Of a stretch of 14,454 nucleotides of DNA, positions 2,125-13,971 are shown piece after piece (position 1 is the stretch's first letter; each line of letters begins with the position of its first letter). Location of the stretch: contig JAOPTX010000044.1 of the NCBI GenBank assembly GCA_051532055.1, positions 135,097 through 149,550 on the forward strand. Reading direction: 5' to 3'. Source of the DNA: Fibrobacterales bacterium. GTDB lineage: Bacteria > Fibrobacterota > Fibrobacteria > Fibrobacterales > JAOPTW01. Below the pieces are notes generated by a model, which was not told the origin of the DNA, ran no database searches, and saw only the letters and a list, made by a program, of their open reading frames with translations. The translations under genes and the position numbers were made by a program.

Positions 2125-3606
2125 ATGAATTACTTTAATACCCTGCCTTTACGTATCCAGCTCGAAGAGCTTGGCAAATGTCGTTTTATGGACCCTTCAG
2201 AGTTCAACGGTGTAGAGTACCTTAAAGGTAAGAAAATTGTAATTATCGGTTGTGGAGCACAGGGCTTGGCACAAGGCCAAAACATGAGAGATAGCGGATT
2301 AGATATTTCTTACGCACTCAGAGATGAAACAATCACTAATAAAGACCTTCCTTTGAATAATGCAAAAGAGAATGGTTTTGAGTTTGGCACTTATGAAGAA
2401 ATGGTTCCTAAAGCGGATCTTGTTCTTAACCTTACTCCTGACAAATATCACACTCCAGTAGTAAATAAAGTAGTACCTCTTATGAAAAAAGGTGCCTGTC
2501 TTTCTTACTCACATGGTTTTAATATTGTTGAAGAAGGGATGCAAGTTCGTGAAGACATTACTGTGGTAATGGTTGCTCCTAAATCTCCTGCATCAGAAGT
2601 ACGCGCAGAATTCCAGCGTGGATTTGGTGTTCCGACTCTTATCGCGGTTCACCGTGAAAATGATCCTAATGGCGATGGTCTTGATATTGCAAAAGCATAC
2701 TGTTGCGGTACTGGTGGCGATAAAGCCGGCGTACTTATGTCTTCTTTCGTTGCTGAAGTTAAATCTGACCTTATGGGTGAGCAAACTATTCTTTGTGGTG
2801 TTCTCCAAACAGGCTCAATTCTTTTCTATGATAAACTTATTGCTATGGGTGTTGACTCAAAATGGGCGTCTAAGTTTATCCAATACTCATGGGAAGTAGT
2901 TGGTGAAGGTCTTAAACATGGTGGTATTACCAACATGATGGATAGACTCTCTAATCCTGCAAAAATTGAGTGTTTTAACATTGCTCAAGAGCTTAAACAA
3001 ATCATGACTCCTCTGTTCAACAAACACATGGATGATGTTATTGATGGCACTTTCTCAGAAACAATGATGAAAGACTGGGCTGAAGGTGATAAAAATCTTC
3101 TTGCATGGAGAGAAGCAACAAACGAAACTGCATTTGAAAAATCGGTATGTGGTGATATGGAAATCACAGAGCAAGAGTATTATGATAAAGGTCTTGTTGT
3201 TGTTGCTATCCTTAAAGCTGGTGTTGAGCTTGCATTTGACACAATGGTTGCTGCGGGTATTAAACCTGAATCTGCGTATTATGAGTCACTTCACGAAACA
3301 CCACTTATCGCAAACACTATTGCACGTATGAAGCTTTATGAGATGAACAAAGTGATTTCTGATACTGCTGAGTATGGATGTTACCTCTTTTCACATGCTG
3401 CAGTACCTCTTCTTAAAGATTGGGTTGATGCAATTAAACCTGAGTGGTTGGGTGCTGATTTCAACGAAGGTAAAACAAACCAAGTTGATAACCAAGAGCT
3501 TATCATGGTGAATGAAGAAATCAGATATACTGAAGTTGAAGTTGTTGGTGAAGAGCTCCGTGCTTCAATGACTGCAATGCAAAAAATTGATAATACTGAC
3601 GCATAG
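2125..3606 (+). CDS. ilvC: Ketol-acid reductoisomerase, class II (long form, 493 aa)
   Basis: N-terminus MNYFNTL..LGKCRFM, Rossmann [43 protein letters not shown] and ISDTAEYG, all colinear with E. coli-type IlvC. AAGGA RBS just upstream. Confidence 0.98.
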
Positions 3607-3625: not shown

Positions 3626-3655
3626 AGAGGCGGCCCTTCGGGGGCCGCTTTTTTT
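3626..3655 (+). terminator. Rho-independent terminator after ilvC
   Basis: GCGGCCC (3630-3636) pairs with GGGCCGC (3642-3648) around a TTCGG loop, followed by T7 (3649-3655). Confidence 0.92.
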
Positions 3656-3706
3656 GTACATTTATCTATAAATATTAGTGCATAATTCATCAGTAAGGCT
3701 TAGAAA

Positions 3707-4955: not shown

Positions 4956-6869
4956 GTGCCTGAACAAATTTTAAAAAATGAAATAGAACTTCTTCTTGAA
5001 TCAGCTCCTGATTCATTGCTTGTACTATCTGAATTAGGTGCGATTGTTAATTGTAATAATACTGCGCTCAAGAACCTTAGTTATAGTGAAAAAGCATTAC
5101 TTGCATTAACGATTAATGACCTCGAAGGGGTTGTGAATGGGGAACGAGTACTTGATGTAATTACTCGGTTGGTGCCTGGTGAGCAGTGCGCATTAAAGAC
5201 TACTTTTATACAGGGTACCGGAGAACGATTACCTGTTGAAGTAACGGTAAGTAGACCAGAGCGACTCCTCGGCTGTTATTATATCTGTTGTGTGCGTGAT
5301 ATCTCTTCATATATTTCTGCCCGTGAAGAGTTGATGCGTAATGAACGCCTAGGAATTGATATAGAAAAGCTCAATAAGACTGGGGGGTGGGAATATACCA
5401 TACTTACCAAAGAAATCTATTGGACCAAAGGCATGTATATTATTCACGAGATGCCATTAGATCCATCTTTTGATCTCATTGAAGAGAGCCTACAATGTTA
5501 CCCGATTGATTATCGAAAACAAGTAATAGATTCGTTTAATCAGCTCATAACCGGAGGAGTTGAATTTGATTTTGAGCTTCCCTTTACCACATTTAGAAAA
5601 AATAGACGTTGGGTGCGTACAAAGGCTGAATCAGTCTATCAGGATGGTGTTCTCACTAAGGTTGTAGGGTCTCTTTCAGATATTACCGAGCGTAAAGAAC
5701 TTGCTCTTCGCCTCGAAGAAAGCACCCTCCGTTTTCAACAAATTGCTGATAATATTGATGAAATATTTTGGCTGATTAGAGTAGATGGCACCGTGTTGAT
5801 GGTGAATAGTGCTGCGGAACGTATTCTTGAGCAACCGGGAACTTTAGGAAAGGATTTTTGGAACCTTCCCTTTTGGAACGAAGCGGAATGTGATGAGATG
5901 AGGAAGTATTGTACCTTAATGTTGGTTAATAGGATACGACATTCAACACGAGAGACATGTTGGTCAAAGAGTTCAGGCGCGCTTCGTACTTTTCAGCACA
6001 ATATCTCACTGGTACCTGATGATGCAGAAGGGTTTGCTTATTTTGCTATTACTTCGCAAGATATTAGCGCGCATAAAGAGTATGAAGCTCGGGAAAAGGT
6101 ACAGCAAGAGCAGTTGCGTCAAGCAGATAAAATGGCGAGTCTTGGTATCTTGGTGTCAGGGGTGGCTCATGAAATAAATAACCCCAATAATTTGGTAATG
6201 CTCAATGCTGCCTTTTTGCAAAAGGTGTGGCAGGATGTGATTCCGGTACTTGATGATGTTGTTGTACAGGATCCAGATCTACGATTGAATAACTTACAGT
6301 ATCGGCAAGTGCGAGATAAATTTGCCGAGCTTCTCAAAAGTATTAGTATGGGGAGTGACCGGATAAAAGGAATAGTCCATAGCCTTAAAGAGTTTGTACG
6401 AGTGGATACTGGTAGGCTTGATGGTAAGGTTGTAATAAATACTGTAGTGAAAGAAGCTGTAATGATTGTACAAAATGTAGTGTCAAACTCTACTGATCAT
6501 TTTAATGTGAAGTATGCCTCAACAGAAATAGTGGTTAAGGGTAATGCGCAACAAATAGAACAGGTTGTAATAAATCTTTTAACTAATGCTTGTCAAGCGC
6601 TGACACAACGGACACAAGTGATCGAAGTGATAATAGAATGTGAGGGTAGTGATGCTGTAATCTCGGTGATTGATGAAGGGTCCGGGATGTCACGAGAGAC
6701 TTTGAAGAAAATTAAAGATCCATTTTTTACAACCAATAGAGATCACGGGGGCACAGGATTGGGGCTTTCGGTTTCGCATACCATTGTTGAAGCACATAGT
6801 GGTATGTTACAATATGAATCTATCCTTGGTAAAGGAACACGTGCATACGTTCGGCTACCCCTTGTATAA
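4956..6869 (+). CDS. Cytoplasmic multi-PAS sensor histidine kinase (NtrB-like)
   Basis: About three PAS/PAC repeats ending in VRDIS, LSDITERK and SQDIS. H box GVAHEINNP, N box NLLTNACQA, G1 DEGSGM, F box DPFFTT, G2 GTGLGLS. No evident transmembrane segment; GTG start. Confidence 0.93.
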   Translation: MPEQILKNEIELLLESAPDSLLVLSELGAIVNCNNTALKNLSYSEKALLALTINDLEGVVNGERVLDVITRLVPGEQCALKTTFIQGTGERLPVEVTVSRPERLLGCYYICCVRDISSYISAREELMRNERLGIDIEKLNKTGGWEYTILTKEIYWTKGMYIIHEMPLDPSFDLIEESLQCYPIDYRKQVIDSFNQLITGGVEFDFELPFTTFRKNRRWVRTKAESVYQDGVLTKVVGSLSDITERKELALRLEESTLRFQQIADNIDEIFWLIRVDGTVLMVNSAAERILEQPGTLGKDFWNLPFWNEAECDEMRKYCTLMLVNRIRHSTRETCWSKSSGALRTFQHNISLVPDDAEGFAYFAITSQDISAHKEYEAREKVQQEQLRQADKMASLGILVSGVAHEINNPNNLVMLNAAFLQKVWQDVIPVLDDVVVQDPDLRLNNLQYRQVRDKFAELLKSISMGSDRIKGIVHSLKEFVRVDTGRLDGKVVINTVVKEAVMIVQNVVSNSTDHFNVKYASTEIVVKGNAQQIEQVVINLLTNACQALTQRTQVIEVIIECEGSDAVISVIDEGSGMSRETLKKIKDPFFTTNRDHGGTGLGLSVSHTIVEAHSGMLQYESILGKGTRAYVRLPLV

Positions 6870-6896
6870 AGGGAATGTCGTTACACAGGAGATACA

Positions 6897-8249
6897 ATGA
6901 AAGAATTTAGACAGAAAATATTATTAGTAGATGATGAGGCGGGCTTTCTAGAGACGGCAGTTCTTACTTTACAATCATATGGATTTAGTCAAGTAGATAC
7001 CTTGGTAGATTCACGGGATGTTATTGCATTTTTGAGAACTAATCCCGTTGATATTGTTTCTCTTGATTTGACAATGCCCTATATCTCAGGAGAGGAACTG
7101 TTACAGCAAATATCCGATGAGTTTCCTCATATTTCAGTGATTATTATCTCAGGAATAATGGATGTCGAGACGGTCATAACGTGCATGAGGCTTGGGGCAA
7201 AAGATTATATCATGAAGCCTTTAGACGATAAGCGACTTTCAACAACTATTGCCAATATTGCAGGTGAACATCAGCTTCGTGATGAAAATCGTTTGATTCA
7301 AAATAAAGTGCTTTCAAGTGTTGTTGAAAATGGTTCTGCGTTTAATGAAATTGTTACAGGATCGCCCTTGATGCAAAATTTGTTCTCCTATGCTGAAGCT
7401 ATTGCAGTGTCGCCCTTGCCGGTACTCATCACGGGGGATACAGGGACGGGTAAAGAATTGATGGCTCGGGCTCTCCATAAAGTTCGACACCCTGACGCTC
7501 CCTTTGTTGCGTGTAACGTGGCGGGAATTGATGACTCTGTTTTTTCTGATACGCTGTTTGGTCATGTAAAGGGTGGTTTTACTGGGGCTGATTCAAATCG
7601 TGAAGGTGTTATTGAGCAAGCAAATGGTGGTACACTCTTTTTGGATGAGATTGGTGAGCTCTCACCTGAATCTCAAGTGAAATTATTGAGGTTGCTACAA
7701 GAAGATGAGTATCAACCCATTGGCGCAGATCGATTAAAAAGGAGTAAGGCGTGGGTTGTATTGGCAACAAACCGTGATTTGGAAAGCCTTCCTCAGTTTA
7801 GAAAAGATCTCTATTATAGACTTGCGGCACATCGGTTACATGTCCCCCCTCTGAGTGAACGAGTGGAAGATATTCCGCCTCTTATTCAGCATTTTATTCG
7901 TAAGTATGATAAAACGATACAAGATGAGCAATTGGTTACTCTTTCTCGTGAGGTTGAGCGTGATGTTCTGGACAAGCCCCTCAATGGAAATATTCGTGAG
8001 CTCGAAGGAATTGTTGCTAATCGCGTCATATCGGGGAATGGGGCCTACATTTTTACTCCTGGAGGCGGAGAACAGTCGAATGACTCTGTTGCATTTAACT
8101 TCTCAGCCTTTCCCACAATGAGTGAGATACGCGTAACGGCTGTTCGGGAAGCTATTGATTATTGTAATGGCAATAAAACCTCTGCCGCTCGTTTATTAGG
8201 GGTGTCAAAACAAACGGTTTTTACTGTGGTTAAAGAGTCTATTAACTAG
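6897..8249 (+). CDS. NtrC-family sigma54-dependent response regulator (REC-AAA+-Fis HTH)
   Basis: Receiver LLVDDE / SLDLTMP / MKP; Walker A GDTGTGKE; L1 loop GGFTGA; Walker B LFLDEIG; DLYYRL; sensor II GNIREL; C-terminal HTH GNKTSAARLLGVSKQT. AGGAG RBS. Confidence 0.95.
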   Translation: MKEFRQKILLVDDEAGFLETAVLTLQSYGFSQVDTLVDSRDVIAFLRTNPVDIVSLDLTMPYISGEELLQQISDEFPHISVIIISGIMDVETVITCMRLGAKDYIMKPLDDKRLSTTIANIAGEHQLRDENRLIQNKVLSSVVENGSAFNEIVTGSPLMQNLFSYAEAIAVSPLPVLITGDTGTGKELMARALHKVRHPDAPFVACNVAGIDDSVFSDTLFGHVKGGFTGADSNREGVIEQANGGTLFLDEIGELSPESQVKLLRLLQEDEYQPIGADRLKRSKAWVVLATNRDLESLPQFRKDLYYRLAAHRLHVPPLSERVEDIPPLIQHFIRKYDKTIQDEQLVTLSREVERDVLDKPLNGNIRELEGIVANRVISGNGAYIFTPGGGEQSNDSVAFNFSAFPTMSEIRVTAVREAIDYCNGNKTSAARLLGVSKQTVFTVVKESIN

Positions 8250-8328
8250 ACCGTAGCCAAGAGTACTGTGCTGAATATTTGACTCTTTCCTATCCACTTT
8301 GATTGATGCAAAATAAAACTATTTGATT

Positions 8329-8351
8329 AAAGCCCCATTTGGGGCTTTTTT
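8329..8351 (+). terminator. Probable intrinsic terminator after the two-component pair
   Basis: AAAGCCCC-ATTT-GGGGCTTT hairpin running into a T-tract. Confidence 0.75.
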
Positions 8352-8355
8352 ATTT

Positions 8356-8372
8356 GAGGCACGTCATTTGCT
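8356..8372 (+). promoter_or_regulatory. Sigma54 (-24/-12) promoter
   Basis: GAGGCACGTCATTTGCT: GG (8358-8359), exactly 10 nt, then GC (8370-8371). It matches TGGCACG-N4-TTGC except for the first T, and lies about 32 nt upstream of ATG 8404, next to a sigma54 activator gene. Confidence 0.8.
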
Positions 8373-8403
8373 TACTCAATAGTGAAGTTGAATAAGGAAT
8401 TTT

Positions 8404-8787
8404 ATGAGTAGCTTTATTATAGTAGATGACGAACCTAATATCCGAATGACATTAGAGCTGGTCTTACAGTCTGCAGGACATGCTGTGTTTTCTTTGGATA
8501 ATGCTCATAATGCCATGATATTGGCTGAAGAAGCTCTTCTCGAGTCCTTTTCTATAGACTTCTTAATTACTGATATCCACATGCCTGGTAAACGAGGGGA
8601 TGTTCTCGCAAGAGAGATTAAAGCTTTCTTCCCTGACATCAGGGTTATTGCAATAACGGGGTCTGTTAATGAAGAAATTAAATCTCAATTGAGTGCTTCG
8701 GGGTGTAAAAATATCATTGAAAAGCCTTTTACAGATGATCAGGTATTGTCATTGATCGATTCTGTGAGCCAAGAGCAGTTGGTATAA
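8404..8787 (+). CDS. Stand-alone receiver-domain (CheY-like) response regulator
   Basis: IIVDDE, LITDIHMPG (phospho-Asp), IAITG and EKPF; no output domain. AAGGA RBS. Confidence 0.92.
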   Translation: MSSFIIVDDEPNIRMTLELVLQSAGHAVFSLDNAHNAMILAEEALLESFSIDFLITDIHMPGKRGDVLAREIKAFFPDIRVIAITGSVNEEIKSQLSASGCKNIIEKPFTDDQVLSLIDSVSQEQLV

Positions 8788-8857
8788 TGGGGGGGAGCAG
8801 TGCATATAAGGGTGTAGCAGCCTGTGGGTGTACCATAAATAAACTAAAAAGAGCGAT

Positions 8858-9604
8858 ATGTATAAATTAAGAAAAGATAGCAATACACTAACGGTAGATT
8901 TTGAAAGTAGACTCGATTATATTGATCGTGTGGTACTAGACCTCTCTTATTTTGTATTGAAAAAAGGGGATTTTAATAGAGTTCCCCTTGAACAGGTGAT
9001 ACGAGAGCTCGTATCCAATGCAGTTATTCATGGTAACATTCTTGACAGTAATAAGAATGTAACGGTAACTTTAAAAGCTTTTGCAGGGAGTAGATTTCAA
9101 CTTATCGTGGTTGATGAGGGTTTTGGGCTCTCTCAATCAGACTTAGTGATGGGGGGAGAGAAACCTCAAAAATATATTGGACAAAAAGGACTGGCTTTAG
9201 TGCATCATTTTGCAGATGAAGTTCTTACCGATCCAGCGACAGGAACAGTCTCTCTGTATATTACGCTCTCTCCTGATTTTGAATGGGGACTCATACAGTC
9301 GGATGAAAAACTACTTATTTCTCCCAGTCGAGAAATTACTTCTGATACTCTCCACGAATTTCGTTCAATTCTCTTTGGGTGGCTGAAAAGTGACGTTCCT
9401 GATTGTGAACTCTGTTTGGTCAATTCTCGGGAAATGAGTTCGGAAATTTTGAGTGTCATGATCCTCTTTTCGGTGTATCTCAAGCGATCGCCAAAAGCAA
9501 ATAGTTTTCGGCTCACTGGTGTGTCACCAGAACTCATGACTCTTTTTACCATTTCACATATGATATCTCTATTTAATATCAATCATAAGTACCAATATGC
9601 ATAA
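8858..9604 (+). CDS. RsbW/SpoIIAB-like serine kinase (HATPase_c_2) fused to a C-terminal STAS-like domain
   Basis: N box ELVSNAVIHGN, G1 VVDEGFG and G2-like GQKGLALV, with no His-phosphotransfer domain. The last ~105 aa follow the STAS pattern (EITSDTLHEFRSIL...LCLVNSREMSSEILSVMI...FRLTGVSPELMTLFTISHMISLFNI). Confidence 0.75.
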   Translation: MYKLRKDSNTLTVDFESRLDYIDRVVLDLSYFVLKKGDFNRVPLEQVIRELVSNAVIHGNILDSNKNVTVTLKAFAGSRFQLIVVDEGFGLSQSDLVMGGEKPQKYIGQKGLALVHHFADEVLTDPATGTVSLYITLSPDFEWGLIQSDEKLLISPSREITSDTLHEFRSILFGWLKSDVPDCELCLVNSREMSSEILSVMILFSVYLKRSPKANSFRLTGVSPELMTLFTISHMISLFNINHKYQYA

Positions 9605-9636
9605 ATGGTATAAAAAATGGACCTATGGGTTAGGAA

Positions 9637-9655
9637 TGGGGTAGTGGTTACCCCA
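9637..9655. promoter_or_regulatory. Perfect inverted repeat TGGGGTA-N5-TACCCCA, candidate regulator binding site
   Basis: GC-rich palindrome in an AT-rich intergenic region upstream of the PAS-LuxR gene. The same heptamer recurs at 10733 and 10744. Confidence 0.5.
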
Positions 9656-9791
9656 GTTTAACATCATTTAAAGAGGTTAAAATGTTGCTAATTTTATCGA
9701 ATTATAAATTATAAATGGAAACATATTCCTAGGTCATTTTGACTTGTTTGATATCTGTTCCATCGTTAAAAATAGAGATATTTTGCTTTGA

Positions 9792-10700
9792 TTGGACTAT
9801 GTGGAGGAATGCTTGAGTAGAGTGGAAGAAAATTTTGACAAAAACTATTCTTTATTAGAGATGGCTGTAAAGGAAGCGAATACAGGAATCGCTATTTATG
9901 AAATAAAAAATGAGAATCCTTTACAACTCACCTATTTTATGGCGAGTAAAGGGTTTTTATCTATAACTGGTTATGAAGAAGCAGAGCTTTCATTAAAGGC
10001 TCATGGTATTTTTGGTGAACTTTATAGTGATAGTAGTGCGTCAATATTCAATACACTCATTTCAGAAAATCGTACTCACGATGACCTACAGATAGAATTA
10101 ACGAGAAAATGCGGGGATATTCGGCATGTACAGGCCTCAGCTCAAAAAATAATTTGTACCTATGGCTCATTTTTGGTAAAAACTATAACTGACATTTCTG
10201 AACTCCAGAAAGTGCAGTTGAAAATACTTAAGAAGAATAAAAATCTTCTTGAAGAAAATGAGAAACTAGAACGTCAGGGAGATGCTGCGGTTAATGTAAT
10301 TGAATCGATGGCTGAAGAGCGTAAAAAGAGTCAAGCACGGATATATACCTCTGTTGTACAGCTTCTTGAGCCCGCAATTCACAATTTGAAATTTAACAAC
10401 TTATCAAAAGAAGAGATGGTGACTCTCCTAGAGTCTATTACACTTTCGCTTTCTGGTTTAGGTAGTGAAAAAATTCAGAGTGCTTTAAGGGTACTCTCTG
10501 CTAAAGAACTCGAAATGGCTCATTTAATTCGGCAGGGCTACGCATCAAAAGAGATTGCGAGATTTATGAATGTAGGACATCAGACCGTTTCCTCTTATCG
10601 TAAAAATGTTCGTAAAAAGTTGGGGATTCAGAATGCATCCATTAATTTGAGAGAGTACCTTGTCGAGCTCTTTGAAAAAGGTGACTCTGAAGATGGTTAA
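9792..10700 (+). CDS. PAS-domain, coiled-coil, LuxR/GerE-type HTH transcriptional regulator
   Basis: PAS features (GIAIY, FLSITGYEEAEL, ITDISE), a central coiled coil, and a C-terminal LSAKELEMAHLIRQGYASKEIARFMNVGHQTVSSYRKNVRKKLG LuxR HTH. TTG start uncertain. Confidence 0.9.
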   Translation: MDYVEECLSRVEENFDKNYSLLEMAVKEANTGIAIYEIKNENPLQLTYFMASKGFLSITGYEEAELSLKAHGIFGELYSDSSASIFNTLISENRTHDDLQIELTRKCGDIRHVQASAQKIICTYGSFLVKTITDISELQKVQLKILKKNKNLLEENEKLERQGDAAVNVIESMAEERKKSQARIYTSVVQLLEPAIHNLKFNNLSKEEMVTLLESITLSLSGLGSEKIQSALRVLSAKELEMAHLIRQGYASKEIARFMNVGHQTVSSYRKNVRKKLGIQNASINLREYLVELFEKGDSEDG

Positions 10701-11199: not shown

Positions 11200-12327
<1,128 letters not shown>

Positions 12328-12339
12328 GAAGAATGGGTC

Positions 12340-12365
12340 TTCAGGCTGGGTATCCCCAGTCTGAA
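12340..12365 (+). other. Intercistronic stem-loop without a U-tract
   Basis: TTCAGGCTGGG-TATC-CCCAGTCTGAA: 11-bp stem with one G-U pair, between leuB and cimA. Confidence 0.7.
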
Positions 12366-12402
12366 CAATCGGCTTGGGAACCTTTAAATAAACGAGATAT
12401 GT

Positions 12403-13971
12403 ATGACTGTAAAAATATATGATACTACCCTTCGTGATGGTAACCAGGCTCGAGGCCTCTCATTTTCACTTGCAGATAAGTTGATGGCTACTGAAAGACT
12501 CATTGATTTTGGCGTTGATTATATTGAGGGTGGCTGGCCTAACCCCACGAGTGAACTTGATGTGGAGTATTTTAAAAAAGTTAAGTCATTGAATCATCAA
12601 AAAACAAAGATTGCAGCATTTGGTTCAACGCGGCGCCCTAAAAATAGTGTTGAGGATGATGTCATTCTCAATAGCTTGGTGCGCGCAGAGACAGAAGTGA
12701 TTACCATTTTTGGTAAAAGCTGGGACCTTCATGCTACTGATGTTATTCGTGTGGGGCTCGAAGAGAATCTCGAAATGATCGAATCTTCAATTGCCTATCT
12801 TAAGAAATATGCTGATGAAGTATTTTATGATGCTGAACACTTTTTTGATGGGTATAAAGCGAACCCGGAGTATGCACTACAAACATTACTTGCAGCACAA
12901 AAAGGTGGCGCTGATTGTTTGGTACTTGCTGATACAAATGGCGGTATGGCACTTCCTTGGGAATTTAAAGAGATAATTGAATCAGTAAAATCTGCAATTG
13001 ATGTACCCTTTGGAATACATACTCATAACGATACGGGGGCTGCTGTGGTGAATTCTGTCAGTGCTGTGGAGTATGGTGCTCAACAGGTACAAGGAACGAT
13101 TAATGGCTATGGTGAACGGTGTGGAAATGCTAACCTTATAACCATCATTCCTAATCTAGTACTTAAAATGGGTAAGGATCTTACTTGTGCTGAAAACCTT
13201 AAGGATTTACGAAATCTAAGCGTTAATCTCGATGAGATTTTAAACCTCCCTAATGACATACGGGTACCGTATGTTGGTGAAGCAGCTTTTGCTCATAAGG
13301 GTGGTGCTCATGTTGATGGCGTTATGAAAGTACAACACAGCTTTGAGCATATTGATCCGTCACTTGTTGGAAACAATAGAGAATTTATTTTGTCTGATCA
13401 AGCCGGTGGTTCACTAGTTGTTGATCGTCTTAAAGCTGTAGTTCCTGACGTTGATAAAAAAGACCCTGCCGTTAAAGAGCTTCTTGCAGAAGTTAAAGAG
13501 ATGGAGAATGAAGGGTTTCACTTTGAGACTGCAGGTGCCACCTTTGAGTTAATGGCTGCGAAGAAGCTCGGTAAATTTAAACACCCTATTGAAGTGGTGG
13601 GCTATAGAGTGATAGAAGAGCGCCGTGCTAATGGACTTTCGGTGTCGGAGTCTTCTATTAAAATAAGAGTCGATGGTGATGTGAGTCACCGAGTTGCAGA
13701 AGGAGATGGACCGGTTAATGCCCTTGATGGCGCCCTCCGTCTCGCTCTTGAAAAATATTTCCCCTATGTGGGCGAAGTAAAATTAAAAGACTATAAGGTA
13801 CGTGTTTTGGGTGATAATGTTGGTACTGATGCAAAGGTTCGTGTTTGGACAACCTTTGGTGATGGAGATACCACATGGAATACGGCTGGTGTTTCAACCA
13901 ATATTGTTGAGGCGTCATTCACCGCACTGCTCGACGGTTTGAGCTATAAAATTATGAAGGAGAATATCTAA
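12403..13971 (+). CDS. cimA: Citramalate synthase (LeuA-like DRE-TIM enzyme with C-terminal allosteric domain)
   Basis: YDTTLRDGNQ, YIEGGWP, AAFGSTRR, IFGKSWDLH, YDAEHFFDGYK, DTNGG, HTHND, AFAHKGG and AEGDGPVNALD. The GKSWDLH, DAEHFFDG and HKGG motifs mark the bacterial CimA subfamily rather than LeuA. Confidence 0.9.
   Translation: MTVKIYDTTLRDGNQARGLSFSLADKLMATERLIDFGVDYIEGGWPNPTSELDVEYFKKVKSLNHQKTKIAAFGSTRRPKNSVEDDVILNSLVRAETEVITIFGKSWDLHATDVIRVGLEENLEMIESSIAYLKKYADEVFYDAEHFFDGYKANPEYALQTLLAAQKGGADCLVLADTNGGMALPWEFKEIIESVKSAIDVPFGIHTHNDTGAAVVNSVSAVEYGAQQVQGTINGYGERCGNANLITIIPNLVLKMGKDLTCAENLKDLRNLSVNLDEILNLPNDIRVPYVGEAAFAHKGGAHVDGVMKVQHSFEHIDPSLVGNNREFILSDQAGGSLVVDRLKAVVPDVDKKDPAVKELLAEVKEMENEGFHFETAGATFELMAAKKLGKFKHPIEVVGYRVIEERRANGLSVSESSIKIRVDGDVSHRVAEGDGPVNALDGALRLALEKYFPYVGEVKLKDYKVRVLGDNVGTDAKVRVWTTFGDGDTTWNTAGVSTNIVEASFTALLDGLSYKIMKENI

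Follow-up and report, generated by a model that had tools for sequence, protein, structure and literature searches.

The window, that is, the whole 14,454-nucleotide stretch of Fibrobacterales DNA analysed here, carries ilvC at 2125..3606 on the forward strand, where all features named below lie unless stated otherwise. Profile search, PDB match and structural model identify its 493-aa product as a class II (long) ketol-acid reductoisomerase (KARI), an enzyme of valine and isoleucine synthesis. The protein scores 836.8 bits against NF003557, above the curated cut-off of 713; its top PDB match is E. coli IlvC (1yrl/3ulk, E = 4e-203), aligned with 1yrl in one full-length stretch; and it has the length (~490 aa) and the duplicated knot domain expected of class II. 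An AlphaFold2 model, computed from a 63-sequence alignment and containing no ligand, has a pLDDT of 90.5 and matches 3ULK with a TM-score of 0.93 and an rmsd of 1.9 Å (64% identity). TM-scores in the class II structure comparisons were 0.93–0.95.

The catalytic motifs are intact. Residues G42, G44, Q46 and G47 of the Rossmann glycine motif (residues 42–47, 2248..2265), the DLMGEQ metal-binding motif (residues 215–220, 2767..2784) and the YYESLHE motif of the duplicated knot domain (residues 385–391, 3277..3297), which we take to bind metal as well, are invariant in the 63 aligned sequences, as are the Mg-binding acids D215, E219, E387 and E391. The available text of PMC13753588 describes a metal-site role for the Asp and Glu equivalent to those in DLMGEQ. 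Chemistry on acetolactate would presumably be the same as in other KARIs. This ilvC is the sole KARI match in the window's own genome (G000, 94% complete), and its product is an intact, housekeeping class II enzyme of that genome. Class and motif integrity had both been proposed in a preliminary description of this DNA, and both are borne out.

The neighbours of ilvC are unrelated to it. Upstream on the other strand (528–1829, −) lies a GH2-like protein, encoded by a lipoprotein-like ORF that weakly matches a GH2 TIM barrel (E = 2e-10) and contains a Ser/Glu-rich linker; this linker is strongly different from that of the copy at locus L001, discussed below. Isochorismatase- and rhodanese-like genes follow. 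A GC-rich hairpin and T run at 3626..3657 make a likely intrinsic terminator (−21.1 kcal/mol, z = −4.5; none of 200 shuffled sequences matched it); a promoter and terminator consensus scan found nothing above chance and did not call this hairpin. A signalling cluster occupies 4956–10700 (+), with a PAS histidine kinase, a sigma-54 response regulator, a small receiver-like ORF, an anti-sigma-like ATPase and a LuxR-type regulator. At 11239–13971 (+), leuB adjoins a citramalate synthase gene (TIGR00977, over cut-off), a neighbourhood that suggests isoleucine synthesis via the citramalate route.

The cofactor loop and characterised KARIs

According to the available sections of PMC5940873, the beta2-alphaB loop alone contacts the adenosine 2'-group, with an Arg and a Ser holding the phosphate; acidic loop residues repel the 2'-phosphate, accept bonds from the ribose hydroxyls and mark NADH use in natural KARIs. 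The window KARI aligns with E. coli IlvC without a gap over the stretch in question, so window residue i corresponds to E. coli residue i+2. The preliminary description had placed a segment running from a YALR loop to LTPDKY at 2311–2448, and translation inside the 493-aa ORF agrees. The 12-residue cofactor loop spans residues 65–76 (E. coli 67–78; 2317..2352), and the model has helices at 67–71 and 75–82. R66, D67, T69, D74, P76 and Y108 correspond to E. coli R68, K69, A71, R76, S78 and Q110. Both R66 and K73 (E. coli K75) are kept, and the E. coli-type NADPH-specific loop R68/R76/S78 is absent as a set, D74 and P76 taking the other two places. D74 (codon at 2344..2346), the predicted 2'-phosphate discriminator, gives the protein one NADH-type trait, an acid at a conserved phosphate-binding loop position. 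The hydroxyl of Ser78 is removed by P76 (2350..2352), and Y108 (2446..2448) serves as a marker of the group described below.

Table 3 of PMC5940873 gives NADH/NADPH ratios of 0.003 for E. coli IlvC and 185 for its engineered derivative 6E6 (A71S/R76D/S78D/Q110V), and agrees with the E. coli loop and the 6E6 mutations as the preliminary description had given them. An earlier cofactor switch of E. coli IlvC likewise used R76D, in the available part of PMC5817062. The window KARI is like E. coli IlvC in length, fold, 12-residue loop, R68 and catalytic motifs, and differs from it by A71T, R76D, S78P and Q110Y. As previously described, the changes fall on all four positions altered in 6E6; R76D is identical and R68 is kept in both, whereas at 71, 78 and 110 the natural enzyme has Thr, Pro and Tyr and 6E6 has Ser, Asp and Val.

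The same table lists four natural NADH-preferring KARIs (Tp, Ua, Af and Do), all without an Arg at the R68 position; the natural Arg-keeping enzymes in it are bispecific or NADPH-preferring, and Arg at this position combines with NADH preference only in its engineered variants. The text available from PMC13753588 names an Arg-to-Glu change at this position as the key one. An acidic beta2-alphaB loop is common to the window KARI and to the natural NADH-preferring (Tp, Ua/4XDY, Af, Do) and bispecific (Ia/4XDZ, Ms, Hs, Sw) enzymes, and the 12-residue loop length is shared with Ua and Sw. A second NADH-type trait, loss of the first loop Arg, is present in the four natural examples but absent in the window KARI, which retains R66. 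This loss is a mark of the natural NADH-preferring set and not a requirement, as engineered variants retain the Arg. The preliminary description had held that the known natural NADH-using KARIs are short class I forms; this stands for 4XDY (338 aa) and 4XDZ (343 aa), both short class I and so unlike the class II window KARI, and the remainder (Tp, Af, Do, Ms, Hs and Sw) are taken to be class I too.

Two states among class II homologues

The homologue pool was drawn from two homologue searches, 67 genome loci and the best 30 loci found across 201 genomes from the phylum. Dropping sequences below 450 aa and exact duplicates, with near-copies kept, reduced 323 sequences to 310 besides the query. 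E. coli numbering is used for homologues throughout. R76 is present in 137 of the 310 and absent from 173, a share that reflects search bias and hence is not a frequency. The R76 homologues have R68 (137/137), S78 (137/137), A71 (129/137) and Q110 (132/137). Those without R76 have Y110 (173/173, compared to 2/137 with R76) and E71 (169/173), with Gln, His or Leu at position 76 in most of them. Position 71, 76 or 78 is acidic in none of the 137 R76 homologues versus all 173 of the others; in each of the four that lack E71 (L001, P0002, P0006 and L034), Asp or Glu occupies 76 or 78. The window KARI also lacks E71, the acid usual in this group. Counting how often Asp and Pro occur at positions 76 and 78, as the preliminary description had proposed, showed Asp76 to be rare (3/310), while Pro78 was found in 39/310, all without R76.

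Losses elsewhere in the clamp were confined to the homologues without R76 (R68 13/173, S78 40/173; 0/137 and 0/137 with R76), and 13 of them lack R68, R76 and S78 together. R68 is kept in 160/173 and K75 in most. To judge from these residues, the rest of the phosphate clamp relaxes after R76 loss. One carrier of the triple loss, L013, has no other KARI match in its own genome. Desulfobacterales class II KARIs (P0122–P0128, P0140, P0147, P0149 and L013:3001-4464) have Leu68, Glu71, Leu76 and Pro78, and this combination probably makes them the cleanest NADH candidates.

The K69-to-D change noted in the preliminary description is indeed present (Asp at window position 67) but is not diagnostic: Asp69 is common to both states, and its occurrence in 24/137 ordinary R76 homologues rules it out as an NADH marker. 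Nor does the picture of the window KARI as a one-off mimic of 6E6 hold up, as it has a wide group around it with E71, R76 loss and Y110, and shares only R76D with 6E6; the group mostly has Glu71 where 6E6 has Asp76/Asp78. Comparison of the sequences indicates that the non-R76 homologues are an unstudied natural class II group, with E71, R76 loss and Y110 as its signature and the window KARI as an extreme member. Named members come from Prolixibacteraceae, other Bacteroidales, Desulfuromonadales, Desulfobotulus and Desulfatiferula; P0026 (Draconibacterium aestuarii) has the loop type E71/H76/S78 and P0136 (Desulfatiferula olefinivorans) E71/L76/P78. A literature search whose coverage excluded the primary 2011–2015 papers and patents turned up neither a natural class II KARI that uses NADH nor a paper tying KARI and NADH to four of the group's genera.

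R76 is kept in 28/28 other Fibrobacterota loci examined. Three Fibrobacterota KARIs (L086, L088 and L089) combine Arg76 with Phe at 110, possibly a step towards Tyr110.

For an independent sample, we scanned metagenomes with a key on the Y110 motif alone. This gave 120 loci, of which 19 were not KARI and 1 lacked the loop; the 100 used comprise 87 distinct strings, with 56 loops not seen in the homologue pool. R76 was found in 0/100, E71 in 99/100 and Asp76 in 0/100. The sole exception to the acid rule, L129, has Tyr110, Ser71, Asn76 and Ser78. Even samples show the non-R76 state to be a minority: among 300 genomes from the phylum of G203, one KARI match out of nine had Tyr110, and among 300 Bacteroidia genomes none of 21 motif matches, themselves not confirmed as KARI, had Tyr at this position.

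Repeated changes of state

We built a quick tree of 82 rows with the trait columns removed; 14 rows were forced in and rows of differing state were retained, a sampling that favours contrasts. On this trait-free tree the R76 state changes at least 8 times, with 5 changes forced by well-supported branches, and a topology with all non-R76 rows in a single clade is rejected (p-AU 0.0012). Acid gain accompanied R76 loss in 5/5 independent pairs, the P value of 0.0625 being the floor for five pairs, so that significance is unreachable. Across eight opposite-state pairs, the eighth of which shares a lineage with the second, 6 of 488 columns differ in at least 7/8 pairs, and 4 of those 6 lie within the loop. 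Over the rest of the sequence, three pairs of opposite state have identities of 93.6, 94.0 and 97.0%. P0018 and P0050 (Gly71, Arg76, Tyr110) are 97% identical to P0012 (Glu71, Gln76) and look like natural reversions by two changes.

On the free tree the window KARI groups with Bacteroidales and Desulfuromonadales sequences. A topology that places it among other Fibrobacterales survives the test (p-AU 0.47), so we do not claim horizontal transfer into the window genus.

Cofactor preference of the window enzyme and its relatives

Because Arg76 and Ser78 of the phosphate clamp are replaced by Asp and Pro, the window KARI, on sequence grounds, seems somewhat likelier to prefer NADH than otherwise. 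The preliminary description had suggested use of NADH or of both cofactors; the homologue comparison strengthens this suggestion, and the retained R66 keeps dual use a strong candidate. R76D is shared by the two NADH variants engineered from E. coli IlvC, and this too would count towards NADH. Under NADH preference, the 2'-phosphate would be repelled by the carboxylate (Glu71 in most members, Asp76 in the window KARI), which would form hydrogen bonds to the ribose 2'- and 3'-hydroxyls. Arg68 may be kept for stacking on adenine, and Tyr110 may repack the adenine pocket, as Val110 does in the engineered enzyme. Pro78 is predicted to sit in the first turn of modelled helix 75–82, where proline is usually tolerated.

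The persistence of R66 and K73 would count against a strict preference. Arg66 might still pair with the 2'-phosphate and make NADPH about as good a cofactor as NADH, a possibility that we consider unlikely overall but serious, since natural Arg-keepers are bispecific or NADPH-preferring. The Ia, Ms and Sw KARIs, with Arg kept and an acidic loop, have ratios of 0.8–1.2 (PMC5940873, available sections); R68 is likewise retained across most of the non-R76 group, and near-identical pairs flip state, which would be easier via a dual-use intermediate. Against bispecificity, 6E6 shows a 185-fold preference for NADH in that source despite retaining R68, and the window KARI lacks both R76 and S78 and has Asp at 76.

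It is rather improbable that the window KARI still prefers NADPH, with the phosphate held by R66, K73 and helix backbone and with the changes at 71, 76 and 110 tuning affinity, salt tolerance or loop structure, for example through Glu71–Tyr110 pairing. Predictions from the loop are fallible: although its acidic loop resembles those of the bispecific enzymes, Sac-KARI favours NADPH 20-fold (PMC5940873, available sections). The general retention of K75 fits continued NADPH use, as does L129, with Y110, no R76 and no acid at all, a combination that, like the lack of E71 in the window KARI, would weigh against the NADH reading. Continued preference for NADPH leaves unexplained the 13 proteins devoid of R68, R76 and S78, and an acid that shifts among 71, 76 and 78 yet is present in 173/173.

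Cofactor supply bears on the same question. Searches of G000, which is 94% complete, gave no match to PntB or G6PD; the genome has six [FeFe]-hydrogenase-family and two COX1-family matches. Its contig C1 carries adjacent NfnA/NfnB-like genes (L098:175-2531), to which profile models give other names. We take this pair to be of the NfnAB type, so NADPH can likely be made, which would fit an NADPH-preferring enzyme. G6PD is present in 1/5 carrier genomes tested. Desulfobacter, an anaerobe, has a KARI that keeps R76. Given the NfnAB-like pair, the G6PD in one of five carriers and the many anaerobes that keep R76, anaerobic life or NADPH shortage is not supported as a general cause; the potential NADPH supply and the R76-keeping anaerobes would also count against NADH preference.

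That the loop is an assembly error, or that ilvC is decaying, is scarcely credible: the window lineage does have a longer branch (0.29) than its neighbours, but the catalytic motifs are intact in the genome's sole KARI, an RNA-library contig spans 2176–3631 (not in itself proof of transcription), and T71/D76/P78/Y110 recur in L001 (same record as G189/L069; 99% identical) and P0002 (95% identical), which with the window make three distinct assemblies whose agreement excludes the misassembly that the preliminary description had allowed for. One marine sample, possibly the window's own source and hence not counted as independent, gave contigs from its DNA and RNA runs (X1, X2) that show no loop difference from the window.

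For the group as a whole we can be only tentative. It may represent a widespread NADH-dependent class II KARI family in Bacteroidales, Desulfuromonadales, Desulfobacterales and the window's Fibrobacterales genus, using a Glu71/Tyr110 solution unreported by directed evolution of E. coli IlvC. Two or three substitutions would flip the state to or from the NADPH form, and the window sub-lineage would have moved the acid to 76, converging on the engineered R76D.

Anaerobic production of isobutanol and valine has a known redox bottleneck in the NADPH need of KARI, and E. coli IlvC needed engineering for NADH use in oxygen-free isobutanol production. Engineered switches of the KARI cofactor often lower activity, about two-fold in one case (PMC9755324, available text). 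The natural NADH users so far are from extremophiles, with kcat values of 0.02–0.46 per second, compared to 3.6 per second for E. coli IlvC with NADPH (PMC5940873, available sections). The value of the present observations lies more in the non-R76 group than in the single window gene. The opposite-state pairs at 94–97% identity make the evolution of cofactor switching directly testable. If the NADH reading is correct, the automatic name NADP(+)-dependent on at least one member (P0015) would be wrong, and a natural NADH group with named species would offer ready parts and new substitutions to try, the window KARI being 64% identical to E. coli IlvC.
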